From positions 1 to 64,000 of IMG/VR virus record IMGVR_UViG_3300029915_000016: a stretch of DNA of 64,000 nucleotides; one strand, given 5' to 3'. The position numbers and the translations under genes were made by a program. Every line of letters begins with the position of its first letter. The first letter of the stretch is position 1. Below are positions 47,778-61,502 of the stretch, one piece after another. Below the pieces are notes generated by a model. It saw nothing but the letters and a program-made list of their open reading frames with translations. It was not told where the DNA came from and made no database searches. This DNA is from a virus.

Positions 47778-48659
47778 ATGAAAAACAGACGATGGGGCGA
47801 TAACGACAAGTATTGGGGTCCGTTTACATACGCGCATTCGGATAAAGAATACAATCCTTTCGCGGTTATACTTGGATCTGGAGACGAGGAGCATCCGGGG
47901 TGCTATCTCAGGCTTGGTGCATTCCATAGGACGCTGATCTGTTCGCTCCCGCCGATCATTCCACCGTATCGCAGGAAGGTAGTTGCGAAGTTTTGGAACG
48001 AGGATGACATTAAGCGTCTAGGACGCAACTGGTACTACGACGTTCATGAGCGTGAGTACGGATTCTCCTATGCCGCGAGTGGATGTATCGGAGATGGTGG
48101 ATTTCTGCAAGTCTTTCTTGGCCGTCAGACGCACGACAGCAGCAACGAACAGCGGTGGTCATGCTTCACGCCATGGAATAAATGGAATAACTGGCGTCAT
48201 GTGAGGAATAGTTATTACGGTTTGTATGGAGAGTTTTTTGCATCCGAACCACAGCATCGTATCGACTTCACTACGAAGGCAGGAAACGACAAGTACGCGG
48301 AGTGGACGGCGATTGTGGATGCTTGCCCTACGTTTACGTTCGCATTCAATGACTTTGACGGTGAGTTGCTAACCGCCAAAACTCGTATCGAGGAGCGCCA
48401 GTGGGAACTTGGAACTGGATGGTTTAAGTGGCTATCTAATTTCCATAAGCCAATCATTCACCGTTCGCTTGATATTCAATTCTCAGGCGAAACCGGAAAG
48501 CGCAAAGGATCATGGAAGGGTGGCACGGTAGGACATTCTATCGAGATGCTACCCGGAGAACTGCACGAGTCGGCGTTTAAGAGATACTGCAAAGAGCACG
48601 ATATGGTATTCCTTGGCAGGAGCGGAATAGGAGCATTTGACAATTCCCGTAGTGTGTGA
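47778..48659 (+). CDS. hypothetical protein
   Basis: AGGAG RBS; Trp-rich; FSGETGKRKGSWKGG. Confidence 0.7.
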   Translation: MKNRRWGDNDKYWGPFTYAHSDKEYNPFAVILGSGDEEHPGCYLRLGAFHRTLICSLPPIIPPYRRKVVAKFWNEDDIKRLGRNWYYDVHEREYGFSYAASGCIGDGGFLQVFLGRQTHDSSNEQRWSCFTPWNKWNNWRHVRNSYYGLYGEFFASEPQHRIDFTTKAGNDKYAEWTAIVDACPTFTFAFNDFDGELLTAKTRIEERQWELGTGWFKWLSNFHKPIIHRSLDIQFSGETGKRKGSWKGGTVGHSIEMLPGELHESAFKRYCKEHDMVFLGRSGIGAFDNSRSV

Positions 48660-48672
48660 GAGGATTTACCTC

Positions 48673-48744
48673 ATGAAGAACTTGTGCTTATCTCTATCGT
48701 CTTATTGCTCACTCAGTCTGAGTGGACGAGAGGCTATGGGATAA
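48673..48744 (+). CDS. leader peptide 1 (Leu/Ser/Cys/Tyr sensor) of tRNA operon A
   Basis: MKNLCLSLSSYCSLSLSGREAMG; TTGACA at 48637; codons match the downstream tRNAs. Confidence 0.8.
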   Translation: MKNLCLSLSSYCSLSLSGREAMG

Positions 48745-48768
48745 GTCCAAGTTTAGGATTTGTACCAC

Positions 48769-48797
48769 GAGCCTCCAGAAATGGGGGCTTTTGTTTT
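48769..48797 (+). terminator. attenuator terminator of tRNA operon A
   Basis: GAGCCTCCA-GAAA-TGGGGGCTT followed by TTGTTTT. Confidence 0.8.
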
Positions 48798-48799
48798 GT

Positions 48800-48878
48800 G
48801 GGAGAGTACGCCAACGGAAGAGCGTTTGGACTTAAAATCCAAAGGATATGACGGGTTCAAATCCCTCCTCTCCTACCA
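48800..48878 (+). tRNA. trnL: tRNA-Leu(TAA), short variable region
   Basis: Cloverleaf; TTGGA-CT-TAA-AA-TCCAA; CCA. Confidence 0.85.
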
Positions 48879-48880
48879 TT

Positions 48881-48953
48881 GTGCCGTAAGCGAAGGACGA
48901 GCATCCGATCTGCAAAATCGGAGAACAGGGTTAAAGTCCCTGACGGCACTCCA
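48881..48953 (+). tRNA. trnC: tRNA-Cys(GCA)
   Basis: CCGAT-CT-GCA-AA-ATCGG; U73-CCA. Confidence 0.85.
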
Positions 48954-48965
48954 AGTTTAAGATGT

Positions 48966-49051
48966 GCGCGTGTAGCAAAACGGCAAAGCGCAAGGTTTAG
49001 GCCCTTGAGGTGGAAACACCATTGGGAGTTCGAGTCTCCCCACGCGCACCA
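48966..49051 (+). tRNA. trnL: tRNA-Leu(TAG)
   Basis: CAAGG-TT-TAG-GC-CCTTG; long variable arm; CCA. Confidence 0.9.
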
Positions 49052-49064
49052 GATTTTAGAAGTA

Positions 49065-49142
49065 CCTCGCATGGCGAAATGGAAGAGCGGCGCTCTCAAA
49101 AAGCGTGTCATATTCCCGGTTCGAGTCCGGGTGCGAGGACCA
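49065..49142 (+). tRNA. trnL: tRNA-Leu(CAA), short variable region
   Basis: GCGCT-CT-CAA-AA-AGCGT; CCA. Confidence 0.85.
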
Positions 49143-49143
49143 C

Positions 49144-49232
49144 GGAGAAGTGCCAGAACGGTAAATGGGCCGCACTGCTAATGCGGTGGTCCTGAAAAGG
49201 CCACGTGGGGTCAGCACCCACCTTCTCCGCCA
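49144..49232 (+). tRNA. trnS: tRNA-Ser(GCT)
   Basis: CCGCA-CT-GCT-AA-TGCGG; long variable arm; G73-CCA. Confidence 0.85.
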
Positions 49233-49239
49233 TGTTTAC

Positions 49240-49330
49240 GGAAGGATGAGCGGAATTGGTATCGCACTCGCTTGGAAAGCGAGCTTATGTCGAAAGGCAT
49301 ATGCAGGTTCGAGTCCTGTTCCTTCCGCCA
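49240..49330 (+). tRNA. trnS: tRNA-Ser(GGA)
   Basis: CTCGC-TT-GGA-AA-GCGAG; long variable arm. Confidence 0.9.
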
Positions 49331-49334
49331 GTTT

Positions 49335-49425
49335 GGTATACGCCGTCAACGGTGAGACAATCCGCCTCGAAAACGGATGGGGTGTCAGAGATGGCACAGG
49401 AGTTCAATTCTCTCGTATACCGCCA
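49335..49425 (+). tRNA. trnS: tRNA-Ser(CGA)
   Basis: Loop CT-CGA-AA; long variable arm; GCCA. Confidence 0.85.
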
Positions 49426-49430
49426 AGTTA

Positions 49431-49518
49431 GGCGAGTCCCGCAGACGGCTCTGCGAACGGCTTTGAATACCGTTGGCTCCTGAGAGGGATGGGGGATCGA
49501 CACCTCGACTCGCCGCCA
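49431..49518 (+). tRNA. trnS: tRNA-Ser(TGA)
   Basis: Loop TT-TGA-AT; long variable arm; GCCA. Confidence 0.8.
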
Positions 49519-49524
49519 TGTTGT

Positions 49525-49615
49525 GCGTTGGCTGTAGTGACGGTGGACTGCACCAGACTGTAAATCTGGATTCTCTTTGAGGACACTGGGGGTTCAAATC
49601 CCTCCCAACGCACCA
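49525..49615 (+). tRNA. trnY: tRNA-Tyr(GTA)
   Basis: CCAGA-CT-GTA-AA-TCTGG; long variable arm. Confidence 0.9.
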
Positions 49616-49618
49616 GTA

Positions 49619-50038
49619 TTAAATATCCGAGTTGTACCAGCGAATCATCTTCCTAAATTCGCTTAATCTAATACAGATACAATGATTAATATATTGGCGA
49701 AGTGGAGAAATAATAACTACATCTGGCATCTTCTTCATTATCCATTTCCCTTTTACCTTGACTCCAATCCGGGTAACTATCTCTGCGCCATAGGAACCTA
49801 ACCTTAATCCATCATTAGGTTTTTTATCTGTTAAGGTGGTCATGTCAAACGTGCTGACAAAATCTACTGCTTTACGGAAGTCTTTGATCGGAATCGTCAC
49901 ATCAGAAAAGTATCCACGTACAGACACACGGAACCACATCCTTTTTCCGTCTGCCGTGACGCGAGCATCAAAACCCGGTGCTTCAAACACCGCTACGTTT
50001 ACATCCCAATTATTCCCGTTCAGATCGCGTGGTTTCAT
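49619..50038 (-). CDS. hypothetical protein
   Basis: 139 aa, internal repeat (I...FRK). Confidence 0.55.
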   Translation of the reverse strand: MKPRDLNGNNWDVNVAVFEAPGFDARVTADGKRMWFRVSVRGYFSDVTIPIKDFRKAVDFVSTFDMTTLTDKKPNDGLRLGSYGAEIVTRIGVKVKGKWIMKKMPDVVIISPLRQYINHCICIRLSEFRKMIRWYNSDI

Positions 50039-50346
50039 GAAAGCATTATACATCAAATCAAATAAGGCGCATTTTTTCCTTGACAACTCGCAAGGATAGC
50101 GATACGCTTTCTTTGGGTCTGGATGGCTTCGTATCCCGTTCAAGACGGACCCCACAAATGTCTACCAACGGGAGATAGGAGATAGCTTCTCGGTAGCTAT
50201 CTGACTTGGTGGAGTCCTATTCAATACGAAATGGGCCAGAATTTGACGCGGGGAGACGGTATTTATACGTTTCCCCGTTTTCTGTTATACTAGGGGTGTC
50301 GGATGTGTCACCATCCGGCAAAGCCTCATCGTTCGGAGGAACGAAT

Positions 50347-51087
50347 ATGACACCCCTATCCAAAGATACACCTATTACTCGTAAACGCGAAAGAGCATTA
50401 TATTATCGAGAGTATAGGAAGAAAAAAGGTGCAAATCAAAGATCAGAACAAGAAGCCTTGCGTCTAAAAGCATTAGAAGAATACATCAAAAACCCAAACG
50501 TATGCTTGTTTTGCTCAAAAGTAATTGAACCTAAAATAACAGAAAAACTCTCGATAACTAAACGTAAGAGATACTGTGACGTTAAATGCTCAAGTGCGTC
50601 AAGAAAGAGAGAGTGTAAGTGTGTACCATGCATCTACTGCGGTAAACCATTAAAGAGACACCTAAAGAAATTCTGCACGAAAAGCTGCGCGTCTCGGTCA
50701 AGGGGAATCTTGCAATCTATTACGAAAGGCGATCTTTTCTCGAAAAGATCTGGATACCAATCGGCGAGGAGCGCCATACAAAGGGATGCTAGAACTGTGT
50801 ACTTGTGGAGTAAAAGGAAACTGGAGTGTTTAATTTGTGGATACTCGAAGCATGTGGATATAGCGCACATCAAACCTGTTTCAGATTTCGATGATGCGTG
50901 TACTGTCGCTGAGATAAACGCGATGGATAACCTTGTTTCTCTATGTCCTAATCACCATTGGGAATTTGATCACGGTTTTTTGAAATTCAACGCTGGTTGC
51001 TTTGAAGGATCGAATACACGTAAAGTAATCCGAAAACGTGATTACGATCAAATAAACCTATTTCCACTAGCGCAGAATAATTCTTGA
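50347..51087 (+). CDS. HNH endonuclease
   Basis: GGAGGA RBS; CLICG...DIAHIKP...NLVSLCPNHHWEFD. Confidence 0.85.
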   Translation: MTPLSKDTPITRKRERALYYREYRKKKGANQRSEQEALRLKALEEYIKNPNVCLFCSKVIEPKITEKLSITKRKRYCDVKCSSASRKRECKCVPCIYCGKPLKRHLKKFCTKSCASRSRGILQSITKGDLFSKRSGYQSARSAIQRDARTVYLWSKRKLECLICGYSKHVDIAHIKPVSDFDDACTVAEINAMDNLVSLCPNHHWEFDHGFLKFNAGCFEGSNTRKVIRKRDYDQINLFPLAQNNS

Positions 51088-51118
51088 CAACTGTATATAA
51101 TTGCGTTATCGTTTAATT

Positions 51119-51196
51119 CGCGGGGTGGACTGGAGACGGTTCCAGCTTGGTCTCATAAGCCAAATCACGTCGGTTCGATTCCGATTCCCGCAACCA
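51119..51196 (+). tRNA. trnfM: initiator-type tRNA-Met(CAT)
   Basis: CGCGGGG start with C1:A72 mismatch; CT-CAT-AA; own TTGACA at 51084. Confidence 0.85.
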
Positions 51197-51270
51197 TTTC
51201 GAGACGTGACCTGATCTGTCTCAACGGGCTTGCACGATGACAAGCGCATCTAGCAATAAGGAGAATTGAG

Positions 51271-51630
51271 ATGCGTACACGCTGCAAGTTCAAAGTTGTG
51301 TCGGTGGAAGAAATAGAAGGCGAAATCAGCCGCAAATCATTTAAGGGCGATTACGGAACCAACATCGATGAGTACGGTGGTCTAGCTGGACCGGAATACA
51401 CCGAGAGTCAGGGTTTAAGAAACGGTGAACAGTACAAATGGGTTCCAACTGGGAAGTATTGCCAGAATGTACGGCTGGCCGCACAGTATGATTCGCGGGA
51501 CTCGGAAGATATGAGTTTTGCAGCGGCGACACCTTCAGGAGAACTCAAGATTCTTGTGAGTAACCCTGTGGTGGTTGGGAGTTTTAGGCCGGGGAAGAGT
51601 TTTTATCTCGACCTGATTCCGTGTGAATAA
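51271..51630 (+). CDS. hypothetical phage protein
   Basis: AAGGAG RBS; RCKFKV...FAAATPSGEL....N......F.PGK.FYLD. Confidence 0.75.
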   Translation: MRTRCKFKVVSVEEIEGEISRKSFKGDYGTNIDEYGGLAGPEYTESQGLRNGEQYKWVPTGKYCQNVRLAAQYDSRDSEDMSFAAATPSGELKILVSNPVVVGSFRPGKSFYLDLIPCE

Positions 51631-51850
51631 GGTTCCACGTCCCCTCACGGTATGGTGACGTGGTGGTGGTCCGGTGGGGTGCAAACCCTATTGGGGTCTG
51701 ACAGCCGGGAAAGACCGGCAAGGATTGATGGGTTGCGTCGGCGCATCCCTTAACGGGTGGCCTAGGAGTTAGGAAACCAGACGGTTGTTACCGTTGGACG
51801 GAGAATACCGCTAGAACAGTTGGGCCGATGAGATGGGCGCTGTGGCACTC

Positions 51851-53090
51851 GTGAATCACCGTCATCTAAATCAGACAGTTTCCGGCTTCAATGGCATCTG
51901 CGTTAGCTAAAGACTTGCGTCCCAACTTCCGTCTTACGTTGCCTCCACCAGCAGTAGCGCCAATCCCTGACGCCAGTATCCGTAAACCTTCGTCACGGAT
52001 ATTCTTCGCCGCATTTATATCGCGGTCATGATGTGTTGAGCAGGATGGGCAGGTCCAAGAACGAACAATTAACGGCATCTTACCATTCTGAAATCCGCAC
52101 TCGGAACAAACTTTGCTTGACGGAAAAAAGCGTCCTATTTTTATGAAAGCCTTACCATCGCGCTCTGCTTTGTACTTGAGAAACAATGTTAGTGTTCCCC
52201 ACCCTACATCTGATACTGCTTTCGCAAGGTTATGGTTAGCTATCATTCCCTTCACATTCAAATCCTCTACGATCACGACTTGGTTCTCATCAATGATCTT
52301 GCGAGAGACTTTGTGAAGGTAATCACGGCGCTGGTTTGTGATATGTTCATGAACTCGTGCAACCTGAATACGTGCTTTGTTGCGACTTGATGAGCCTTTC
52401 TTTTTGCGACTCAAAGATTGCTGCTTACGCTTTAGATTCTTTTCTGACTTGGCAATCCAGCGAGGATTATTAAACTTCGATCCATCGCTAGTAATTGCTA
52501 AATGCGTTAAACCTACGTCTACACCGATTGCCTTCCCTTCGATAGAAATAGGAGGAACAGGAATAGAATCATCGGTAAGAATCGAAGCGTAGTAGTGGCC
52601 GCATGGATTCTTGCTCACCGTGACCGTCTTGATTCGTCCAACAATCTCACGGTGTATGACAGCCTTAACTTTGCCAACTTTAGGAAGATTTATTATACTC
52701 CCGTCTATTTTAACGTGTTGCGGATACTGAATCGACTGTTTTCTATGCTTAGATTTGAATCGTGGATATCTAGCCCTCTTCTCAAAGAAGTTCTGGAACG
52801 CTGCTGCCAAATTACGAATTGATGATTGAAGGACTTGCGCGTATGCGTCTTTCATCCATTCATGTTCTGTTTTCAATTCAGGCAAACGATTCGCCATTGC
52901 AACAAATGTGAGACTTTTTCCGGTTTCCTTGTACACTTTCTGCGTTTCCGCCAAAGCCCAATTCCACGTCCAACGAGCACATCCAAACTGGCATACAAGT
53001 AAATTTTCCTGCTCAAAGGTGGGATAGAGACGAAATTTTGTCGTATTCAACATTTATTTAATCCTACCATGTATACGATTAAATGTCAAT
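51851..53090 (-). mobile_element. TnpB-only IS1341-like element; right end ...GATTCAC at 51851
   Basis: Subterminal hairpin ACTGTC...GACGGT then TTCAC on the minus strand; no tnpA; left end undefined. Confidence 0.6.
51866..53053 (-). CDS. tnpB: TnpB RNA-guided endonuclease (IS200/IS605 family)
   Basis: FRLYP...FGCARWTWN; RuvC GVDVG, IVEDL, DRDINAA; zinc finger. Confidence 0.95.
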   Translation of the reverse strand: MLNTTKFRLYPTFEQENLLVCQFGCARWTWNWALAETQKVYKETGKSLTFVAMANRLPELKTEHEWMKDAYAQVLQSSIRNLAAAFQNFFEKRARYPRFKSKHRKQSIQYPQHVKIDGSIINLPKVGKVKAVIHREIVGRIKTVTVSKNPCGHYYASILTDDSIPVPPISIEGKAIGVDVGLTHLAITSDGSKFNNPRWIAKSEKNLKRKQQSLSRKKKGSSSRNKARIQVARVHEHITNQRRDYLHKVSRKIIDENQVVIVEDLNVKGMIANHNLAKAVSDVGWGTLTLFLKYKAERDGKAFIKIGRFFPSSKVCSECGFQNGKMPLIVRSWTCPSCSTHHDRDINAAKNIRDEGLRILASGIGATAGGGNVRRKLGRKSLANADAIEAGNCLI

Positions 53091-53158
53091 ATTTCTCTAT
53101 TTTTGCGTTTACTTATTTCACTAAGATGTGATATAAAAAGTAACAGCAACAAGTTTAC

Positions 53159-53232
53159 GGTCCCATGGTCTAACGGTATGATTCATCTCTGTCTAAGATG
53201 CGTTCGGGGTTCGACTCCCCGTGGGATCGCCA
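53159..53232 (+). tRNA. trnD: tRNA-Asp(GTC)
   Basis: CATCT-CT-GTC-TA-AGATG; GCCA. Confidence 0.9.
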
Positions 53233-53239
53233 TAGTTGT

Positions 53240-53323
53240 GCTGCCGTTCTCGGTACTGGTATCTGAGCACCGTCTTTCAAGCGGTTGAATTTAATGCGAG
53301 TTCGATTCTCGTCGGCAGCGCCA
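53240..53323 (+). tRNA. trnE: tRNA-Glu(TTC)
   Basis: ACCGT-CT-TTC-AA-GCGGT; GCCA. Confidence 0.85.
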
Positions 53324-53330
53324 AGTTTAT

Positions 53331-53405
53331 GTCCTTGTCTTCCAACGTTTAGGAACTCCGGCTCTCTACCGGATAACGCGGGGTAAGCACCCTCCAAGGA
53401 CACCA
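53331..53405 (+). tRNA. trnE: tRNA-Glu(CTC), atypical T arm
   Basis: TCCGG-CT-CTC-TA-CCGGA; ACCA. Confidence 0.7.
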
Positions 53406-53520
53406 TTTCGAGAACGTATGACGAGAACGCAGATCGCAATAGGATTTGTAGTCAAGGTAGCAACCAAGATGTTTTGGTGGATAATTTTGATATTCCTGTT
53501 GTGGATACAAAGTTTGTGAG

Positions 53521-53645
53521 TTTGTGCGGCGGCGTGGAGCGACACGCTAAACCTTATCGTGATATTCATCCCCCACGAGATAAGATAAGGTGAGGAAGAT
53601 TGGGGGAACGACCTGTATGCCGGTTTCGTACCCGGCCCGCACAAA
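53521..53645 (+). ncRNA. tRNA-like RNA with a large structured insert in place of the anticodon arm
   Basis: TTTGTGCGG/CCGCACAAA stem, GCGTG...CACGC D-like arm, GCCGG-TTTCGTAC-CCGGC T-like arm. Confidence 0.55.
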
Positions 53646-53660
53646 TAAATCACAAACTGC

Positions 53661-53690: not shown

Positions 53691-53697
53691 GAAAAAC

Positions 53698-53853: not shown

Positions 53854-53863
53854 AGGAGTAGCA

Positions 53864-55648: not shown

Positions 55649-55655
55649 TTTTAAC

Positions 55656-55730: not shown

Positions 55731-55739
55731 GTTTTGTAC

Positions 55740-55816
55740 GGCACTGTAGCTCAGAATGGTAGAGCAGGACTCTGAAAAGGTCCGTGTCGCGGTCTCGATA
55801 GCCGCCAGTGCCACCA
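55740..55816 (+). tRNA. trnF: tRNA-Phe(GAA)
   Basis: GGACT-CT-GAA-AA-GGTCC; ACCA. Confidence 0.85.
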
Positions 55817-55817
55817 T

Positions 55818-55895
55818 CGGAATGTAGCGTAGTCTGCTTAACGCGCTCGCTTCGGGAGCGAGAGATCGCAGGTCGAAATCCTGCCATTCCGACCA
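55818..55895 (+). tRNA. trnP: tRNA-Pro(CGG)
   Basis: CTCGC-TT-CGG-GA-GCGAG; C1-G72, ACCA. Confidence 0.9.
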
Positions 55896-55901
55896 GTTTA
55901 A

Positions 55902-55976
55902 CGGGGTGTAGCTCAAAGGAAGAGCACTAGTTTTGGGAACTAGAGGCTGTGGTATCGTGATCCACCACCCCGACCA
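55902..55976 (+). tRNA. trnP: tRNA-Pro(TGG)
   Basis: CTAGT-TT-TGG-GA-ACTAG. Confidence 0.9.
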
Positions 55977-55992
55977 TCTATTAGGAGTAGCG

Positions 55993-56238
55993 ATGAGGGA
56001 TATAACAATACAGGAAGCATCCGAGTGTATCAAGAGAACGCTACCGCGCTGCACGCCTGATATTTGGTTTCTCACGCGCTTCAAGGATTACGTGAATAAC
56101 AACACAGAAGTTGACGATATGGAGGAAGATGAATTTTTCGATAGTTTTCTTCCTTGCGCTTTGTGGGCTTTCACTGAAGCGATGTACAGCACGATTATGC
56201 CAGTTACTAGGTTTGGCGAATGTGCGCCTCTAGCTTAA
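55993..56238 (+). CDS. small acidic hypothetical protein
   Basis: AGGAG RBS; 3' end overlaps tRNA-Arg. Confidence 0.55.
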   Translation: MRDITIQEASECIKRTLPRCTPDIWFLTRFKDYVNNNTEVDDMEEDEFFDSFLPCALWAFTEAMYSTIMPVTRFGECAPLA

Positions 56239-56299
56239 TGGAAAGAGCGGCACTCTACGAAAGTGTCAGGTTCCCGTTCAAGTCGGGAGGGGCGTACCA
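56224..56299 (+). tRNA. trnR: tRNA-Arg(ACG)
   Basis: GCACT-CT-ACG-AA-AGTGT; ACCA. Confidence 0.9.
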
Positions 56300-56311
56300 A
56301 AGATTTTCACA

Positions 56312-56358
56312 TGCAAGCAAAAATAGTGCTTGCAATTGCGCAGAGTTTGATGTAAGGT
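56312..56358 (+). promoter_or_regulatory. putative promoter and operator of the Y RNA/Ro60 operon
   Basis: TTGCAA-17 nt-TAAGGT; inverted repeat TGCAAGCA-N7-TGCTTGCA overlapping the -35 box. Confidence 0.5.
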
Positions 56359-56477
56359 TGGAAATGTTGAGTTTGAGCTTCGGTGCAGGAATGGAAACAT
56401 GACCATCCTGACGAATTAGGTCTCAGAGTATCGAGCCTTGTAGCTAGGTTACAGGACGGCTACCACCGGAAATAAGT

Positions 56478-56623
56478 AAGCGAGAGCCGGAAGAGTTGGA
56501 TTATCGCCTATGGAGCGGGTTATACGGGTTCGAGTCCCGTCTGGGGAACCAATAACGAATCGACTTCCCCGGTCGTCTAATGGCAGGACGCCTAAACATC
56601 CAGTTCGCTATTTGTTCTCGCTT
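56478..56623 (+). ncRNA. Y RNA-like 1 (YrlA-type, permuted tRNA module)
   Basis: GAGCCG/TTTGTTC stem enclosing T arm, acceptor stem, D arm in permuted order. Confidence 0.8.
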
Positions 56624-56630
56624 TAAGTTT

Positions 56631-56760
56631 TGCACGAGCCGTCCGAATTTCGTTATCCTCCGCCAAACTGGGGGCGTAGCTTAATGGCTAAAGCGCCAGA
56701 GTAATCTGGATATTGGGTTCGAGTCCCACGTCAACGCGAAGTTCAATTTTTGTTCGTGCA
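56631..56760 (+). ncRNA. Y RNA-like 2 (non-permuted tRNA module)
   Basis: GAGCCG/TTTGTTC stem enclosing D arm, GTAA-capped stem and T arm. Confidence 0.75.
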
Positions 56761-56767
56761 GTTTTTT

Positions 56768-56826
56768 GTACGGGTCGGAAGCCAGCGTTACCTTGTAAAT
56801 ATCGCTGTCTGATTATTTATCCGTAC
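56768..56826 (+). ncRNA. Y RNA-like 3 (minimal)
   Basis: GTACGGGTCG/TTTATCCGTAC. Confidence 0.7.
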
Positions 56827-56842
56827 CAATGGAGAGTGAATC

Positions 56843-57322
56843 ATGGGTTTCATAGCCGAAGTTTCAGCCACAGATAGGTTTTGGAGTAAGGTTGATAAAT
56901 CGGCTGGGCATGGTCCAAACGGGGACTGTTGGGTTTGGACTGCACGTAGGAATTTAGATGGCTATGGGCAGTTTCGTCCTTCCTCTTGGAGATCAGGTGG
57001 TAAACTTGTAAGCGCACACGTATTTTCGTATCGCGAGAGTTTTGGCGAGTTTGATGCTGGATTACAAGTCCTGCATCGCTGCGATAATCCGGCTTGCGTT
57101 AGGGCAGAACATTTGTTTGTAGGTACGCAGGGTGACAATGTTCACGACATGATAGCGAAAAATAGATCGGGCCTAAATTTTCTTGGCTCTGATGTGATCG
57201 CTAACATTCTCGCGATGCATGGCAAAGGGATTAAACAGACAGAAATTGCCAAGAACGTTGGGATACACAAGCAATCTGTCTGGAGAATCATTAAGAGGAT
57301 GGCGGTAAAATCCTTGGCGTGA
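56843..57322 (+). CDS. HNH homing endonuclease (HNH_3-like) with C-terminal HTH
   Basis: RFWSKV...CWVWT...GYGQF...AH...VLHRCDNPACVRAEHL..GT..DN. Confidence 0.9.
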   Translation: MGFIAEVSATDRFWSKVDKSAGHGPNGDCWVWTARRNLDGYGQFRPSSWRSGGKLVSAHVFSYRESFGEFDAGLQVLHRCDNPACVRAEHLFVGTQGDNVHDMIAKNRSGLNFLGSDVIANILAMHGKGIKQTEIAKNVGIHKQSVWRIIKRMAVKSLA

Positions 57323-57329
57323 TAAGTTT

Positions 57330-57399
57330 TGCATGGGTCGTTTGGCTCAGCGTTATCCTTCTAAGATAAAACCGCTGGCTGGTTGTTTTTATCCATGCA
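57330..57399 (+). ncRNA. Y RNA-like 4
   Basis: TGCATGGGTCG/TTTATCCATGCA. Confidence 0.7.
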
Positions 57400-57407
57400 G
57401 TGTTTCA

Positions 57408-57550
57408 AAGTGCGAGTCGAAAGAAGTTGATTATCTCAACATGAATGTCATGGGTTCGATTCCCATCGTCGTAGTAATACGATGTAGCTCAGTTGGTAGA
57501 GCGTCTGGATGCCGAAAGGCGTATTCGACTTCAACCATTTATTCGCACTT
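57408..57550 (+). ncRNA. Y RNA-like 5 (classic YrlA architecture)
   Basis: GAGTCG/TTTATTC stem; T arm, GTAA-closed acceptor stem, D arm TAGCTCAGTTGGTAGAGC. Confidence 0.85.
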
Positions 57551-57554
57551 AAGT

Positions 57555-57656
57555 TTGTCAGAGCCGGATGGGTTTGGTTATCGGTTCAAATCCGCTACAC
57601 CGCAAGGTGAATGGCTGTCCGCAAGGACAATCCAAATCCGCTATTTGTTCTGACAA
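57555..57656 (+). ncRNA. Y RNA-like 6
   Basis: GAGCCG/TTTGTTC stem; T-loop hairpin plus two GCAA tetraloops. Confidence 0.75.
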
Positions 57657-57662
57657 TAAGTT

Positions 57663-57739
57663 TGCAGGGTCGGAAGTTCACTGTTCTCTACTACGAATAG
57701 AATGCCGAAAGGCGCACGGTGGGCACTATTTATCCTGCA
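57663..57739 (+). ncRNA. Y RNA-like 7
   Basis: TGCAGGGTCG/TTTATCCTGCA; GAAA tetraloop. Confidence 0.7.
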
Positions 57740-57749
57740 TTGAATGTCC

Positions 57750-57790
57750 ATAAGGGTCGAGCGGCAAAGCCGTTCCAATTTTATCCTTAT
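57750..57790 (+). ncRNA. Y RNA-like 8 or Ro60-binding hairpin in the 5' UTR of Ro60
   Basis: ATAAGGGTCG/TTTATCCTTAT ending 4 nt before the RBS. Confidence 0.65.
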
Positions 57791-57807
57791 GACCGGGAGA
57801 AAGACGA

Positions 57808-59493
57808 ATGAAGAACTATATCACCAATGTAATTGATCCATCCACCACGCCTCAGACTGAGGCACTTCCAAACAAAAACCAAGTGAAGAACTCCGCTGGC
57901 GGATTCGTGTTTGCTGTGACGCCATGGACCCGGCTTGAGAGGTTCCTTGTACTGGGAACTGAGGGCGGATCATACTACGCATCAGAGCGCGATCTGACCA
58001 AGACCAACATCGATGGCCTCAAGTCTGCTTTGGCTGAGGATGGCATCCGGTTTGTCAACACGGTTGCCCAAATCAGTCATGCTGGCCGTGCGCCGAAGAA
58101 TGATCCTGCGTTGTTTGCATTGGCTTTGGCTGTTGCCGACAAGCGCAAGGATGTATCCGCATACGCCCTGAGCAAGCTGTCAGACGTGGCGAGAATTCCC
58201 ACACACCTGTTTTCCTTTGCACAGTACGTGCAGAGCCTACGGGGTTGGGGAAGGGCGCTGCGTGGTGGAGTGGCTGATTGGTATCTGTCTAAGCCTGCTG
58301 ACAAGTTGGCTTACCAACTTGCAAAGTACCAGTCGCGTAACGGATGGTCAAACGCAGACCTTTTGCGCCTGAGTCATGCCAACCCTGAGTTGCAGCCTGA
58401 CCATAAGATTCTTTTGAATTGGGCTGTGAAGGGATGGGAGTCTGTTGGTGACGATCCTCATCCGTCAAAGGCTGTTCTTCCGGTGTGGGCATTTGAAAAG
58501 GCAAAGCGCCTCACTCCTCAAACGGGAATCAAGGAACTGGTTAGTCTCATTGCGGATTACGATCTTCCGCGTGAGTGCATTCCTACCGAGTTCTTGTCTC
58601 ATATTGAGGTATGGGATGCATTGCTTCAGAAGATGCCAATGACGGCCATGATTCGCAACCTTGGAAAGATGACTTCCATCGGACTAGTCTCGCCAAACAG
58701 TGAGGCGGCAAAGATGGTAGGAAAGCGCCTTGAGGACGCAGAACTGCTCCACAAGGCACGGATTCATCCTATCTCTGTGCTGATGGCACAATCTGTCTAC
58801 AAGTGCGGTCATGGACTCAAAGGCAACTTGTCATGGTCTCCTGTACCGCGTGTTGTAAACGCTCTAGAGAAGGCTTTCTATGCTTCTTTTGCCAACGCAC
58901 CAAAGACCGGAAAGAGGTTCTACATCGGCCTTGACGTTTCCGGTTCGATGGGAAGCGGATATGTTGCCGGAAGTCAATTGACTCCTCGTGAGGCTGCTGC
59001 TGCTATGGCAATGGTAACCATGAAGACGGAGGACGAGTATTACATCGCTGGATTCACGAACGGCACATCCCGCTCTGCATGGTCTAGCCAAGGATATGGC
59101 TCTGGTGTCACGAAGTTGGAATTGACTCCTGATATGACTTTGAAAGCTGCTTGCCGGTACACTTCTGATTTGCCTTTCGGTGGAACAGACTGCGCTTTGC
59201 CAATGATCGATGCTTTGGAGAAGAAGATCCCTGCGGACGTGTTCATGGTCATCACTGACTCTGAAACGTGGGCAGGAACCAAGCACCCAACCGTTGCTTT
59301 GCAGGAATACCGCAACAAGATGAAGATCGACGCCAAGTTGATCGTCATGGGAATGGTATCGAACGAGTTCACGATTGCCGATCCTACCGATGCGGGACAG
59401 ATGGACGTGGTTGGATTCGATGCGTCCGTTCCACAGGTCATCGCTCAGTTCATCGGCGTGGATGAGCCTCTGGCTGTTGAAACAGACGACTAA
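57808..59493 (+). CDS. rsr: Ro60 (TROVE + vWA) RNA-binding protein
   Basis: QVKNSAGGFVF, RLERFLVLGTEGGSYY, KYQSRNGWS..DLLRLSH, MPMTAMIRNLGKMT, vWA DVSGSM, GGTDC, TDSETW. Confidence 0.95.
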   Translation: MKNYITNVIDPSTTPQTEALPNKNQVKNSAGGFVFAVTPWTRLERFLVLGTEGGSYYASERDLTKTNIDGLKSALAEDGIRFVNTVAQISHAGRAPKNDPALFALALAVADKRKDVSAYALSKLSDVARIPTHLFSFAQYVQSLRGWGRALRGGVADWYLSKPADKLAYQLAKYQSRNGWSNADLLRLSHANPELQPDHKILLNWAVKGWESVGDDPHPSKAVLPVWAFEKAKRLTPQTGIKELVSLIADYDLPRECIPTEFLSHIEVWDALLQKMPMTAMIRNLGKMTSIGLVSPNSEAAKMVGKRLEDAELLHKARIHPISVLMAQSVYKCGHGLKGNLSWSPVPRVVNALEKAFYASFANAPKTGKRFYIGLDVSGSMGSGYVAGSQLTPREAAAAMAMVTMKTEDEYYIAGFTNGTSRSAWSSQGYGSGVTKLELTPDMTLKAACRYTSDLPFGGTDCALPMIDALEKKIPADVFMVITDSETWAGTKHPTVALQEYRNKMKIDAKLIVMGMVSNEFTIADPTDAGQMDVVGFDASVPQVIAQFIGVDEPLAVETDD

Positions 59494-59512
59494 CAACAAC
59501 CGATTGTGAGCA

Positions 59513-59547
59513 GGGGGTGCGGGAATATTCGCACTCCCTATTTTTTC
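59513..59547 (+). terminator. intrinsic terminator after Ro60
   Basis: GGGGGTGCGG...TCGCACTCCC followed by TATTTTTT. Confidence 0.7.
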
Positions 59548-59557
59548 AGGAGTAAAC

Positions 59558-59881
59558 ATGTATATCGTAGCTCTAATCTGGATGCACTTTGTATCTGATT
59601 TCGTCCTACAATCGGACAAGATGGCGATCAATAAGTCAAAGGATAACCGTTGGCTCTTCTTTCACTGCCTTGTGTACTCTACACCATTCTTTGTCTTTGG
59701 ATGGAAGTTTGGATGCGTCACACTCCTATTCCATTTCGTGACAGACTACTTCACATCTCGTGGAACGTCCTACTTGTGGAAGAAAGAGATGCGCCACTGG
59801 TTCTTCACTTTAATCGGCTTCGATCAAGCGATCCATCTGACGACATTATTTTTCACGTACCGATTTTTATGCTTGCGTTAG
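59558..59881 (+). CDS. DUF3307-like membrane protein
   Basis: HFVSDFVLQ...H...H...D...GFDQAIH. Confidence 0.8.
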   Translation: MYIVALIWMHFVSDFVLQSDKMAINKSKDNRWLFFHCLVYSTPFFVFGWKFGCVTLLFHFVTDYFTSRGTSYLWKKEMRHWFFTLIGFDQAIHLTTLFFTYRFLCLR

Positions 59882-59901
59882 GACTCGAAGTGGTGTACAT
59901 T
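59873..59901 (+). promoter_or_regulatory. putative promoter of tRNA operon C
   Basis: TTGCGT-17 nt-TACATT. Confidence 0.5.
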
Positions 59902-59949
59902 GATTTTACACCGCAGAAGATCGTGCAGTCGCAGTCGGAAGGATTGAAT

Positions 59950-60024
59950 ATGCAGATCAGGACCAAATCCGTGAGATCCATAACCATGACCGGGAAGCGG
60001 GTCATTTGGGGAACTTGCGTATGA
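59950..60024 (+). CDS. leader peptide 3 (Ile/Arg/Thr/Lys/Val/Met/Gly/Trp sensor) of tRNA operon C
   Basis: GGAAGGA RBS; MQIRTKSVRSITMTGKRVIWGTCV; codons match the downstream tRNAs. Confidence 0.8.
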   Translation: MQIRTKSVRSITMTGKRVIWGTCV

Positions 60025-60049
60025 GGGTCTGAGTGCATTTGTGGTACAC

Positions 60050-60080
60050 AGACCTTCGCCTAGAGCGAGGGTTTTTTGTT
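60050..60080 (+). terminator. attenuator terminator of tRNA operon C
   Basis: ACCTTCGC-CTAGA-GCGAGGGT followed by TTTTTGTT. Confidence 0.8.
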
Positions 60081-60096
60081 GGAGTTCTTTGACAAT

Positions 60097-60170
60097 AGGG
60101 GATTAGTCTAATGGCAAAACGTCTGCCTCCAGAGCAGAATTTACGGGTTCGAGTCCTGTATCCCCTGCCA
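60097..60170 (+). tRNA. trnW: tRNA-Trp(CCA)
   Basis: TCTGC-CT-CCA-GA-GCAGA; GCCA. Confidence 0.9.
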
Positions 60171-60175
60171 GATTT

Positions 60176-60244
60176 GGCACGTATCCAAGGCGGAAAGCGG
60201 CTCTCATAAAGCCGTAAACTGGTTCGAGTCCAGACGTGCTACCA
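60176..60244 (+). tRNA. tRNA-Met or Ile2 (CAT), reduced D arm
   Basis: CGGCT-CT-CAT-AA-AGCCG; ACCA; 69 nt. Confidence 0.75.
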
Positions 60245-60305
60245 AGTTCACGGCGGTTTAAACCTAAACCGATGGCGCAACACCATCCTGCCGTGATTAG
60301 TTTTT

Positions 60306-60383
60306 GGGGGTGTAGCTAGTGTTGGCACCAGCAGTCTCCTTATAAGAGACCGTCCGAAGGTTCGATTCCTTCCACCCCTACCA
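60306..60383 (+). tRNA. trnI: tRNA-Ile(TAT)
   Basis: GTCTC-CT-TAT-AA-GAGAC; ACCA. Confidence 0.85.
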
Positions 60384-60387
60384 TAGT

Positions 60388-60474
60388 GGGACTGTGGCCT
60401 AGTCAGGTTTTGGGCACCCGGCTCTTACCCGGCGCGGAAACGCAACGTAGGTTCAAATCCTACCAGTCCCACCA
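60388..60474 (+). tRNA. trnK: tRNA-Lys(CTT) with long variable arm
   Basis: CCGG-CT-CTT-AC-CCGG; GCG-GAAA-CGC arm. Confidence 0.8.
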
Positions 60475-60485
60475 ACACTTTTAAC

Positions 60486-60561
60486 GGGTTTGTCCTCCAA
60501 CGTCTAGGAAACTCGCCTTTTAAGCGAAGCAATGTGGGTTAGAGTCCCACCAAACCCACCA
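60486..60561 (+). tRNA. trnK: tRNA-Lys(TTT)
   Basis: TCGC-CT-TTT-AA-GCGA; ACCA. Confidence 0.85.
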
Positions 60562-60562
60562 T

Positions 60563-60640
60563 GCACTCGTACCGGCCTCGCCTTCTAAGCGAGTTCACCG
60601 TAACTGGAATATGCGAGTTCGACTCTCGCCGAGTGCCCCA
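60563..60640 (+). tRNA. trnR: tRNA-Arg(TCT) lacking a canonical D arm
   Basis: Perfect acceptor, anticodon and T stems; 7-nt connector in place of the D arm. Confidence 0.75.
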
Positions 60641-60645
60641 GTTTT

Positions 60646-60722
60646 GCCGCTGTATCTCCCCTGCCTCCTAAGCAGGTAAGAGTAAGTGGATGATGACGGT
60701 TCGAGTCCGTCCAGCGGTTCCA
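60646..60722 (+). tRNA. trnR: tRNA-Arg(CCT) lacking a canonical D arm
   Basis: CCTGC-CT-CCT-AA-GCAGG; same architecture as its neighbour. Confidence 0.75.
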
Positions 60723-60737
60723 TGAGGGAGAAGTGAA

Positions 60738-61013
60738 ATGCGAAAGTCATCATTAACCGATCCATTGACGGACGAGGAAGTAGACGCAGCAAACGCCGAT
60801 CCTAGCGACATGTGGATTCATGTGCGGTGCAAGGATTGTGGGGATGTTGAGTGTTGCTTCAACCGGACAGTAACGTCATGGCAACGTCGGTGTTTTCCTT
60901 GCCAGATGGGTTGGAAGCCGATGAAGAGCGTTAAGAAGATCGCAGAGGTCAACGGATTCAAGCCAGTTCCTATGCGACAACAGGAAGATACGTTTGATCG
61001 TGAAACACGATGA
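60738..61013 (+). CDS. Cys-rich hypothetical protein
   Basis: GGGAG RBS; CKDC...CFPC. Confidence 0.6.
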   Translation: MRKSSLTDPLTDEEVDAANADPSDMWIHVRCKDCGDVECCFNRTVTSWQRRCFPCQMGWKPMKSVKKIAEVNGFKPVPMRQQEDTFDRETR

Positions 61014-61020
61014 ACTTTTT

Positions 61021-61095
61021 GCAGGCGTGGTGAAACGGAGATCACAAAGCCCCCCGAAGGCTTAATTCTCGGTTCGAATCCGAGCGCTTGTACCA
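61021..61095 (+). tRNA. trnR: tRNA-Arg(CCG), C33
   Basis: AAGCC-CC-CCG-AA-GGCTT. Confidence 0.85.
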
Positions 61096-61103
61096 TAGTT
61101 TTT

Positions 61104-61178
61104 GCCCCGCTCGTCTAAAGGTAAAGACCGAAGTCCTACAAACTTCAGATCGGCGTTCAATTCGTCGGTGGGGCACCA
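61104..61178 (+). tRNA. trnV: tRNA-Val(TAC), C33
   Basis: GAAGT-CC-TAC-AA-ACTTC. Confidence 0.85.
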
Positions 61179-61257
61179 AGTTCGGAGTCTGAGGGTTGGT
61201 AGCCCTTGGAGGTTACAACGCACAGATCGAACACCTGTGACTCTGGGATGTGTAAAT

Positions 61258-61331
61258 GTCGATGTAGCACAGTGGCAGTGCCATTGCTCGGTAAGCAATA
61301 GACCCGCGTTCGATTCGCGGCATCGGCTCCA
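61258..61331 (+). tRNA. trnT: tRNA-Thr(GGT), C33
   Basis: ATTGC-TC-GGT-AA-GCAAT. Confidence 0.85.
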
Positions 61332-61332
61332 T

Positions 61333-61410
61333 GGCGGTCTAGCTCACATTGAGAAGAGCGTTCCCCTGATAAGGGAGAGGCACCCAGTTCAATTCTGGGG
61401 ACCGCCACCA
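61333..61410 (+). tRNA. trnI: tRNA-Ile(GAT)
   Basis: TTCCC-CT-GAT-AA-GGGAG. Confidence 0.9.
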
Positions 61411-61418
61411 TACGTTGT

Positions 61419-61502
61419 GCGGGTCTTGAGTAATTGGTTGCTCAGTGGTCCTCCAAACCACCGCCGTAAGGCATACGGGTTCGACCCCCGTGACCCGCTC
61501 CA
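61419..61502 (+). tRNA. trnG: tRNA-Gly(TCC), C33, long variable arm
   Basis: GTGGT-CC-TCC-AA-ACCAC; TCCA. Confidence 0.85.

Follow-up and report, generated by a model that had tools for sequence, protein, structure and literature searches.

Ribosome-mediated transcription attenuation is known from the amino-acid operon leaders trpL, hisL, leuL, pheL, thrL, and ilvL/ivbL, in which a short leader ORF is enriched in regulatory codons and four RNA segments pair as 1:2, 2:3 (the antiterminator), and 3:4 (the terminator), the position of the ribosome choosing between the last two. The thrL and ilvL/ivbL leaders are multivalent and mix codons for several amino acids. In pheST of E. coli, encoding phenylalanyl-tRNA synthetase, a leader peptide senses the supply of the cognate aminoacyl-tRNA and controls a component of the translation apparatus. 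In T-box riboswitches, tRNA status also drives the terminator/antiterminator decision, but here the uncharged tRNA itself is bound, by a specifier codon together with the T-box sequence, and no translation is required. The tRNA L-array (trn operon) of Anabaena PCC 7120 is inducible and repressed by TrcR; it is a supernumerary tRNA array interspersed with HNH endonuclease genes and silent until translation is impaired (PMC8421152, PMC10272220).

The window analysed here, 64,000 nucleotides of the 82.6-kb genome of an uncultured phage, contains three blocks of tRNA genes, each preceded by what is probably a ribosome-mediated (leader-peptide) transcription attenuator, one per polycistronic tRNA operon, such that a bank would be opened when its codons are decoded slowly. 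These units share with the amino-acid operon attenuators the codon-enriched short ORF and the four-segment RNA, and with the multivalent leaders the mixture of codons. They differ in that the genes under control would be those of tRNAs rather than biosynthetic enzymes, in belonging to a virus, in that each leader samples 4-9 amino acids and as many as 12 isoacceptors, as a rule one or two times apiece, instead of using runs of one codon, and in that units 1 and 2 appear leaderless; no Rfam leader family matched the window. Whereas pheST concerns one amino acid and yields a protein, the phage product is tRNA, and the loop would close directly on the sensed molecule. Unlike T-boxes, the phage elements contain ORFs, and a T-box search of the elements in the window gave no match. 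The Anabaena L-array, which resembles the arrangement proposed here in its gene content and inducibility, is instead controlled by a ribbon-helix-helix repressor, with neither codon-resolved sensing nor banks, and the papers on it mention no leader, attenuation, or terminator (PMC8421152, PMC10272220). We found no published account of trp-operon-style control of tRNA genes.

Leader ORFs and start signals of three tRNA blocks

The tRNAs were called with ARAGORN and Rfam, and the anticodon loops were read by hand; all features described lie on the + strand. Block A (48800-49615) holds nine of the 33 tRNAs, namely Leu TAA, Cys GCA, Leu TAG, Leu CAA, Ser GCT, Ser GGA, Ser CGA, Ser TGA (49430-49520, identified by hand reading), and Tyr GTA. 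Block B (54302-56299) has twelve, for Asn, Gln (two), Gly GCC, Thr CGT, Thr TGT, His, Ala TGC, Phe, Pro (two), and Arg ACG, and two ORFs interrupt it, one of the HNH type (54839-55396) and a small one near 55994. Block C (60097-61502) also has twelve, for Trp, Met, Ile TAT, Lys (two), Arg TCT, Arg CCT, Arg CCG, Val, Thr GGT, Ile GAT, and Gly TCC; Arg TCT and Arg CCT (60562-60713) were identified by hand reading, and a 91-aa ORF (60738-61013) sits within the block. An Asp/Glu mini-cluster and a lone tRNA at 51119 have no leader.

Upstream of each block lies an ORF of 23-24 codons, followed by an antiterminator whose 5' strand runs over the ORF stop codon, and then by a hairpin. Leader ORF 1 (48673-48744, 23 codons) encodes MKNLCLSLSSYCSLSLSGREAMG, and its codons 4-17 specify only Leu, Cys, Ser, and Tyr, with five different Leu and four different Ser codons. 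Leader ORF 2 (53698-53772, 24 codons) encodes MMTFTTHTATQAPTQPAGNRGSAG, rich in Thr, Pro, Gln, Ala, His, Phe, Asn, Gly, and Arg, and leader ORF 3 (59950-60024, 24 codons) encodes MQIRTKSVRSITMTGKRVIWGTCV, rich in Ile, Arg, Thr, Lys, Val, Met, Gly, and Trp.

An earlier note on this DNA had placed a promoter before each unit, which holds for units 1 and 2, where transcription would begin, judging from the -35 and -10 elements, roughly at the ATG. The promoter-like site of unit 1 (48637-48665; TTGACA, 17 nt, GAGGAT) is followed by the ATG after 7 nt, a spacing that implies a leaderless or near-leaderless mRNA; its GAGGA could also provide a Shine-Dalgarno sequence in the event of read-through out of the gene upstream. 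The same TTGACA-N17-hexamer spacing is found in L037 and L031, two of the related phages, which come from peat metagenomes and show 69-89% Ro60 identity. The unit 2 promoter (53661-53690; TTGACA, 18 nt, TATAGT; 11/12 match), likewise 7 nt before its ATG, is also present in L037 and L042. Unit 3, on the other hand, has no promoter beside its ATG, but a weaker site resembling a promoter some 45 nt further upstream (59873-59901; TTGCGT, 17 nt, TACATT) and a Shine-Dalgarno sequence, GGAAGGA (59937-59943), 6 nt 5' of the ATG. Unit 3 of L033, L034, L039, and L042 carries a TTGCAx-N17/18-TAxxxT site ending 6-7 nt from the ATG, and the start-signal geometry of the leader ORFs is kept across the relatives.

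Alternative RNA structures and proposed control of the tRNA operons

Each leader is predicted to fold into a long 1:2 hairpin plus the terminator (z = -4.4, -2.7, and -2.9). The control codons occupy the leader's 5' half, and in the absence of translation this half pairs with the 3' half. With a ribosome modelled on the control codons, antiterminators of -19 to -22 kcal/mol form by using the 5' arm of the terminator, and a ribosome at the stop codon removes them. In antiterminator 1 (48730-48775), GAGGCT..GGG.ATAAGTCC, from codons 20-24 and just past them, pairs with GGATTTGT..ACC..AGCCTC, a strand containing the 5' arm of the terminator; the fold amounts to -22.4 kcal/mol with the ribosome on codons 2-14 and is gone with the ribosome at codon 18 or beyond. 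Antiterminator 2 (53767-53826; -22 kcal/mol) pairs GGATAGGGTCTC, covering the last codon, the stop codon, and 6 nt, with the hairpin 5' arm GAGGCCCGGTTC, and is destroyed by a ribosome at codon 22 or beyond. In antiterminator 3 (60022-60058; -18.9 kcal/mol), TGAGGGTCTG, comprising the stop codon and 7 nt, pairs with CAGACCTTCG, overlapping the terminator 5' arm.

The terminator-like hairpin that had been claimed for every unit is present with both stem and U-tract in units 1 and 3. Intrinsic terminator 1 (48769-48799) is a 9-bp stem followed by TTGTTTTGT and ends one base 5' of the first tRNA, and intrinsic terminator 3 (60051-60082) is a 9-bp stem followed by TTTTGTTGG. The unit 2 hairpin (53815-53846), a 12-bp GC-rich stem, has no U-tract in the window and is a putative terminator only. 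Between it and block B lies an Endonuclease VII/HNH gene of 438 bp (53864-54301; Pfam PF02945, E = 1e-14), which is missing from the same junction in L037 and L031 and would be co-transcribed with block B upon read-through. The unit 2 stem is preserved through compensatory changes in L037 and L042; the 3' tail reads UCGAUUGUG in L037, where the stem ends CCUU and the U-tract is weak and interrupted, and GUUGCGUAU in L042, where a U-tract is absent.

Both alternative helices are maintained in the relatives through compensatory changes. Across five relatives, 91% of cells are paired in terminator 3, with four compensatory pairs and a covariation score reached by 1 of 500 shuffles, and 88% in antiterminator 3, with three pairs changed on both sides, compared with 24-49% for slid controls. 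The earlier statement that the antiterminator overlaps the stop codon is borne out. The antiterminator shares nucleotides with the terminator 5' arm, and of 15 leaders in the window and its relatives, 14 have the partner of this arm between -24 and +8 nt relative to the stop codon; the exception is unit 1 of L031, with no antiterminator near the stop codon. The stop-codon window pairs with its own terminator arm at -15.9 kcal/mol, against -12.1 kcal/mol for swapped arms, a difference reached by 1 of 100,000 permutations, which, being made without tree correction, overstate significance among related sequences.

Start signals, placement of control codons, position of the antiterminator, and conservation of the helices all fit the trp/his-type geometry that had been proposed, and every sequence-level prediction of such attenuation that was tested supports it. 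We infer the following course. Host RNA polymerase would initiate at the sigma-70-like promoter, and a ribosome would load on the 5'-terminal AUG (units 1 and 2) or on the AUG led by a Shine-Dalgarno sequence (unit 3). If all leader codons are read fast, the ribosome would reach the stop codon and cover the antiterminator 5' strand, so that the terminator forms and the tRNAs stay off. If it waits for an aminoacyl-tRNA at a control codon, the strand would be free to take the terminator 5' arm, and polymerase would enter the tRNA block; the control codons would be exactly those read by the tRNAs of the same operon. With zero translation, the leader 5' half would sequester the antiterminator strand, and termination would win. 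Host anticodon nucleases may act as the trigger, the candidates being defence nucleases or a general shortage.

Alternatively, the leaders could be translated and gauge decoding speed while output depends on Rho access, transcription-translation coupling, or precursor processing or stability, the hairpins being pause or processing sites. The unit 2 hairpin, without a U-tract in two of three lineages, would suit this explanation, as would the weak shuffle tests of antiterminators on single sequences (z from -0.1 to -4.8). It is nevertheless unlikely, given canonical stem and U-tract terminators directly 5' of the first tRNA in units 1 and 3 and a strand at the stop codon that is complementary to the terminator 5' arm in nearly all leaders and co-varies with it. 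The logic could also be reversed, with smooth leader translation required for read-through and stalling causing termination, the unit then being a positive check of tRNA function rather than a shortage sensor. Although the predicted fold without translation likewise terminates, a ribosome that has reached or almost reached the stop codon occupies the antiterminator 5' strand and favours the terminator, and only a ribosome further upstream frees the strand; this geometry is common to all three units and their relatives and makes the reversal very unlikely.

Codon match in the window and its recurrence in other phages

The earlier claim that every tRNA has a cognate or wobble codon in its own leader is confirmed, with coverage under standard wobble of 9/9 in A, 12/12 in B, and 12/12 in C (33/33), compared with 1-5 tRNAs per block by the leaders of the other blocks. 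Leader 1 matches block A with 13 of 22 codons, leader 2 matches block B with 15 of 23 codons and 21 of 23 amino acids, and leader 3 matches block C with 18 of 23 codons, Watson-Crick pairing alone sufficing for all twelve tRNAs. The permutation check that had been proposed gave the same answer: none of 200,000 reassignments of tRNAs among blocks reached 33/33 (null mean 16.4), and whole leaders swapped between blocks covered 8-19 of the 33 tRNAs. The further claim of a split at the isoacceptor level stands in part. With the peptides kept and synonymous codons redrawn by phage codon usage, P(33/33) is 0.0012 (0.0026 for leader 3 by itself), but leader 2 also contains ACC three times and GGA twice, which block B does not read; in leader 3, TCC (twice), CAG, and TGC are unread by block C.

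The relatives retain all three leader families, with the same amino-acid sets in shuffled order, and each block's every amino acid occurs in its own leader; loss of the ORFs or of the match with hairpins kept, named earlier as a possible refutation, is thus not what they show. In L036 and L038, Asp and Glu tRNAs lie within block C, and the leader carries GAA, GAC, and GAT. Coverage of tRNAs by the own leader is incomplete in L030 (9/11) and L038 (11/14), the latter having leader Thr codons with no Thr tRNA detected, and at a small block in L041 just 12 of 30 amino acids are matched.

The same design is present in the cultured Caulobacter phage phiCbK, whose gp083 matches its own block with 31 of 44 codons and 13 of 13 tRNAs and other blocks with 1 of 44 codons. 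Like the window, gp083 and its neighbours, unannotated equivalents in Caulobacter/Brevundimonas phages, combine a TTGACA promoter, an ATG about 7 nt past the -10 element, a codon-matched leader, and a terminator, whereas the phage family is unrelated, leader length is 20-45 codons, and the grouping of the tRNAs differs. The phiCbK GenBank record already annotates terminators before tRNA blocks, and its genome paper leaves the leader/tRNA-block arrangement undiscussed.

That gp083 is annotated as a protein, and that leader 1 is hydrophobic, could suggest functional micro-proteins with a composition unconnected with regulation. This is highly improbable, because composition is conserved while order is not, both between leader 1 of the window and those of L037 and L031 and between the leaders of phiCbK and phage Colossus, and because composition follows the downstream tRNA set and codon choice the isoacceptors. 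A chance effect of biased tracts before tRNA blocks can practically be dismissed: the leaders are skewed in composition (leader 2 is 62% A+C), and scanning many windows before small unrelated arrays can give full scores (8/8 in L088, within a longer ORF), but only the ORF frame gives the match, with 1-7 tRNAs covered in the other five, each leader scores highest for its block when the 82.6-kb genome is scanned in six frames (70,241 stop-free windows of 23 codons), and the permutations, the conservation in relatives, and the recurrence in an unrelated cultured phage contradict it.

Under leader-peptide attenuation, the product of each operon would relieve the stall that induces it, and each unit would thus regulate, by negative feedback, the supply for its own set of codons. 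The phage would most likely produce a tRNA block just when ribosomes slow on the codons of that block.

Leader codons and the tRNA blocks behind them

The source record, an IMG/VR virus of 82,612 bp of which the window forms the first 64 kb, is about 83% complete and has a G+C content of about 47%; its terminase, capsid protein and tail fibre bear only a remote likeness to known phage proteins. The region from 47.7 to 64 kb contains an Acb3 (anti-CBASS) gene, more than 36 tRNA genes, four HNH/endonuclease VII ORFs, two TnpB genes and a Ro60/TROVE gene. ARAGORN called 30-32 tRNAs in the window, Rfam added two (Ala TGC at 55656 and Lys TTT at 60486) and anticodon loops read by hand added Ser TGA, Arg TCT and Arg CCT, by which the blocks of 9, 12 and 12 genes described in the earlier note were reproduced: block A (48800-49615), block B (54302-56299) and block C (60097-61502). 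The leader ORFs in front of them lie at 48673-48744 (23 sense codons, ending in TAA), 53698-53772 (24 sense codons, TAG) and 59950-60024 (24 sense codons, TGA).

Under standard wobble rules, the own leader supplies a codon for every one of the 33 tRNAs (9/9, 12/12 and 12/12), as had been claimed, and leader 3 covers all 12 tRNAs of block C by Watson-Crick pairing alone. The leader of another block covers only 1-5 tRNAs. When the tRNAs were randomly redistributed among blocks of unchanged size, a total of 33 was reached in none of 200,000 permutations (mean 16.4, sd 2.6, maximum 28), and swapping whole leaders among blocks gave a coverage of 8-19 of 33. Among the 70,241 stop-free windows of 23 codons that the genome offers in its six frames, the own leader is the top scorer for each block; full coverage of block B occurs in 15 windows, five of which are leader 2, and that of block C in six, five of which are leader 3. 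The match could be regarded as a product of base composition, but it is confined to the ORF frame, the remaining five frames covering 1-7 tRNAs, and this explanation was therefore ruled out.

When the peptides were left unchanged and their synonymous codons were drawn anew according to phage usage, P was 0.0012 for 33/33 coverage and 0.006 for 46 matched codons. These values indicate that the signal is mostly at the amino-acid level, with a real additional isoacceptor-level layer that resides mainly in leader 3. The Arg, Gly and Thr codons by which the earlier note had illustrated the isoacceptor match are correct but form an incomplete selection, because leader 2 also contains three ACC and two GGA codons that are unread by block B. 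As is typical of attenuators, the leaders carry regulatory codons that match what the downstream genes produce.

Two further groups of tRNA genes lie outside the three blocks. An Asp GTC/Glu TTC mini-cluster (53159-53400, within the region 53054-53400), whose third element, at about 53324-53400, is degenerate and Glu CTC-like, carries a promoter-like site and lacks both a leader ORF and a terminator, so that its tRNAs would be expected to be expressed constitutively, unlike the 33 that the leaders would gate. A lone tRNA at 51119-51196, called by ARAGORN as '???(ct)', has a loop read by hand as CTCATAA, which gives the anticodon CAT; it possesses its own promoter (TTGACA at 51084 and TATCGT at 51107), with a predicted start approximately at the mature 5′ end, and is kept in four related peat-metagenome loci (L031, L037, L032 and L041).

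Start signals and the predicted RNA switch

The earlier note had placed a promoter before every leader. In units 1 and 2, TTGACA is followed by a 17-18 nt spacer and a -10-like hexamer ending 7 nt 5′ of the ATG, a position that implies mRNAs which would be leaderless or nearly so, and this geometry is shared by 6/6 leaders of families 1 and 2 in the window and the relatives. The claim does not hold for unit 3, where no promoter adjoins the ATG; instead, a Shine-Dalgarno sequence, GGAAGGA, lies 6 nt before the ATG and a weaker TTGCGT-N17-TACATT site lies 45 nt upstream. Five relatives have at unit 3 a TTGCAx-N17/18-TAxxxT site 6-7 nt 5′ of the start codon instead. Since the clade appears to provide initiation in two different ways, the arrangement fits translation as a selected property. 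Like known attenuators, each unit thus begins with a short 5′-end ORF (23-24 codons) that has a usable start signal, and the geometry is kept in the relatives.

A terminator scan identified stem and U-tract sites at 48769-48790 and 60050-60074, each ending just 5′ of the first tRNA of its block, which agrees with the terminator-like hairpin proposed for units 1 and 3. For unit 2 the proposal holds only in part: in the window its conserved 12-bp hairpin is followed by AGTGCG instead of a U run, and a 145-aa endonuclease VII/HNH gene separates it from block B. In the predicted fold of each whole leader, the 5′ half pairs with the 3′ half as a long hairpin that is followed by the terminator (z = -4.4, -2.7 and -2.9), and in the minimum-free-energy folds of 3/3 leaders the antiterminator strand is paired with the control-codon segment (1:2 pairing). 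In all three units, the stop codon lies within or directly beside the 5′ strand of the antiterminator (unit 1, GAGGCT..ATAAGTCC; unit 2, GGATAGGGTCTC; unit 3, TGAGGGTCTG), and the antiterminator 3′ strand includes the terminator 5′ arm. A ribosome was modelled as hiding the RNA up to 12 nt beyond the A-site codon. When it is placed on the control codons, 3/3 units retain an antiterminator with a predicted energy of roughly -19 to -22 kcal/mol; once it stands at the stop codon or has reached codon 18-22 or beyond, the antiterminator is lost and the terminator forms. In this model, the units carry the complete four-segment logic of trp-type attenuation. The tails of units 1 and 2 have an AGGATTT(T/G)TAC-like core in common, and those of units 2 and 3 share GGTCT; the three units therefore look paralogous.

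Comparative data on the switch and on the codon match could be obtained from metagenomes. IMG/VR scans with the Acb3 and capsid proteins found no close relatives, and one with Ro60 found only relatives of 31-52%, the tRNA arrays of which show no leaders. A Ro60 protein search gave a graded series of homologues with 63-90% identity, and a metagenome scan with their alignment yielded 14 close loci from peat and bog samples, among which leader families 1, 2 and 3 all recur. The leader 1 peptides of two of these loci, MNFTLSSRLSSLSYLLCVERRV (L037) and MRFLLSSSRYCLSSLLRAGSPFLDRGI (L031), show no similarity to that of the window by BLAST, yet they are rich in Leu, Ser, Cys and Tyr and precede the same type of block; family 3 comprises eight distinct leader versions. 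In every complete leader-block pair, all amino acids of the block tRNAs are present in the own leader, and the tRNAs with a cognate codon amount to 9/9, 8/8, 11/11, 8/8, 12/12, 9/11, 10/10, 9/10, 11/14, 12/12 and 6/7. Co-variation of leader and array, for which the earlier note had suggested a test, is seen for Asp and Glu: in L036 and L038 these tRNAs are inside block C and the leader, MTRSTKNVETIVRIKRDGWDMRV, has GAA, GAC and GAT, whereas in the window, L030, L033 and L034 they are outside block C and leader 3 has no Asp or Glu codon. The rule has counter-examples, namely L038, which retains Thr codons with no Thr tRNA detected, L041, in which a reduced block is poorly matched by its leader, and L039 and L042, in which Glu/Asp codons fall within the structural tail of the leader.

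In 14/15 leaders, the sequence predicted to pair with the terminator 5′ arm falls between -24 and +8 nt from the stop codon, the exception being unit 1 of L031. A single-sequence shuffle test of this upstream pairing does not discriminate, since a GC-rich arm finds partners in many random sequences, and it was replaced by a comparison of own with swapped arms and by pair counts in an alignment. The mean pairing energy of stop-codon windows is -15.9 kcal/mol with the own terminator arm versus -12.1 kcal/mol with swapped arms, and 1/100,000 permutations was as good in this test, which is not tree-aware. In an alignment of five family-3 tails, where the L033 terminator is one column out of register and lowers the counts, the antiterminator has 88% of cells paired, against 24-49% in slid controls, and three pairs in which both partners have changed, and the terminator has 91% of cells paired and four compensatory pairs, with a covariation score reached by 1/500 shuffles. 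The two helices have columns 36-43 of this alignment in common. Modelling, own-versus-swapped arms and compensatory changes thus support the suggestion that an antiterminator at the stop codon is mutually exclusive with the terminator and is masked by a ribosome at the stop. Rather than keeping the hairpins and losing the ORFs or the codon match, the relatives keep the leader families, the amino-acid sets and both helices.

Neighbouring genes and unrelated phages

The unit 1 promoter overlaps the end of an Acb3-family CBASS inhibitor gene (47751-48659; Pfam PF25187, E = 2e-74), which places an anti-defence gene directly upstream of the first tRNA unit. In a comparison of the unit 1 region with GenBank phages, only this gene was matched, at 72% DNA identity, in two Synechococcus phages. 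TnpB (IS605 OrfB) genes occur at 51866-53053 (minus strand) and 62759-63898 (plus strand), and the best cellular homologues of the former are all cyanobacterial (51-60% identity). The TnpB homologues and the Acb3 match give a weak hint that the host may be a cyanobacterium, a phylum with known inducible tRNA L-arrays. Between blocks B and C, a protein with Pfam TROVE and Ro60 vWA domains is encoded at 57808-59493, and 5′ of it lies a YrlA-like Y RNA match at 57417-57531 that is sub-threshold (41 bits versus a gathering score of 69; E = 1.3e-6). Upstream of this match are tRNA-like pieces, including a 33.7-bit tRNA match with an abnormal anticodon loop (56670-56736), and the segment 56480-59493 looks like a phage Ro60/Y RNA module.

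HNH/endonuclease VII genes are located exactly between the attenuator hairpin and the first tRNA in three units or lineages (window, 53864-54301; L033, about 3197-3590; L042, about 12198-12580). The unit 2 junction has no endonuclease in L037 and L031, and the insertion in L033 has a terminator copy on each side. The hairpin/tRNA junction looks like a homing hot spot, and an endonuclease inserted there would fall under attenuator control. The ORFs inserted in tRNA operons are preceded by similar ribosome-binding boxes, TAGGAGTAGC(A/G)ATG or TTAGGAATAGTAGCCGACATG (53846-53866, 54646-54668 and 55978-55996), and this likeness suggests a common origin as mobile cassettes.

The design is not restricted to the peat and bog clade. 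In the Caulobacter phage phiCbK (JX100813), gp083, a 'hypothetical protein' of 45 aa, has 31 of its 44 codons matched to the block behind it, covering 13/13 tRNAs, and one of the 44 matched to other blocks. In the same phage, 10/11 tRNAs of the next block are matched by a 32-codon ORF that begins some 7 nt downstream of a TTGACA-N17-TAGGGT promoter, and rho-independent terminators are already annotated directly before tRNA blocks in JX100813. The phiCbK genome paper, which does not mention the arrangement of leaders and tRNA blocks, gives only 19% DNA identity between CcrColossus and phiCbK; the CcrColossus leader has the same seven amino acids as the phiCbK leader in a different order. The block of CcrRogue keeps His, Ala and Ser tRNAs at a more sensitive ARAGORN setting. 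Elsewhere in phiCbK-like phages (L111, which is JX100813 46800-53200, and L113 and L114), a Glu/Asp tRNA pair is preceded by a terminator and by a leader that is short and conserved (MTHLLTRYEREATGLDTTTA, or variants sharing a YEREA...DTT core), and a Trp-Gly-Gly block has no obvious leader.

In a max-over-windows scan, chance proved able to give full coverage of a small array (5-8 tRNAs), and coverage alone is thus insufficient evidence. The 8/8 coverage found in an unrelated array (L088) lies inside a 70-codon ORF. The 28 tRNA arrays of distant Ro60-bearing phages have no convincing leader (best binomial p = 1.6e-3 over 132 ORFs), which indicates that the leader design is lineage-specific and not a by-product of tRNA arrays. 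It is seen in at least two unrelated phage lineages, the clade of the window and the phiCbK-like phages.

Relation to known attenuators and biological meaning

Sequence and comparative evidence support the trp/his/leu-type attenuation proposed in the earlier note, and we consider it probable that the three units are ribosome-mediated attenuators of the tRNA blocks. They would work like the leader-peptide attenuators of amino-acid operons, of which the multivalent thr and ilv leaders are the closest; the pheST leader is the closest likeness with a component of the translation apparatus as its target. The regulated genes are, however, tRNAs and homing-endonuclease ORFs and not biosynthesis enzymes or aminoacyl-tRNA synthetases, so the units work like the attenuator family on a target class not described for that family. 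Rfam scans of 46000-64000 (gathering threshold) and 50900-57900 (E <= 0.1) gave no match to the T-box or any other leader family, and hence neither the stem I specifier loop nor the T-box sequence of a T-box riboswitch. In accordance with the novelty suspected earlier, no description of leader-peptide control of tRNA genes was found in the full-text literature, a coverage outside which most subscription journals fall. Among published systems, the Anabaena trn array comes nearest, being induced when translation is under stress and having the protein TrcR as its repressor (PMC8421152, PMC10272220); these papers mention no leader or attenuation, and the likeness would be functional only.

Why phages carry tRNA genes and how these are controlled is a long-standing question. 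Current answers, namely codon-usage compensation, the replacement of degraded host tRNAs and escape from tRNA-cleaving defences, all treat the genes as simply expressed. The condition sensed by the leaders could be defence-driven tRNA cleavage, a run-down of the host pool, a mismatch in codon usage or self-limitation of phage tRNA output. A codon-resolved surveillance of host tRNAs, in which those destroyed by anticodon nucleases or other tRNA-cleaving defences, or run down during infection, are detected and only the replacement bank is transcribed, is a tentative reading to which we give somewhat less than an even chance; if it is true, tRNA supply would be an inducible counter-defence and not a constitutive aid to codon usage.

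The attenuator reading extends textbook attenuation to a new target class and explains the grouping of tRNAs into banks with disjoint amino-acid sets. The combination of leader and switch provides a sequence signature for locating such units in other genomes, and the units could serve as compact natural reporters of specific aminoacyl-tRNA availability. If the reading is true, the phage would gauge decoding speed codon by codon and supply tRNAs on demand, and the feedback loop would close on the sensed molecule itself.
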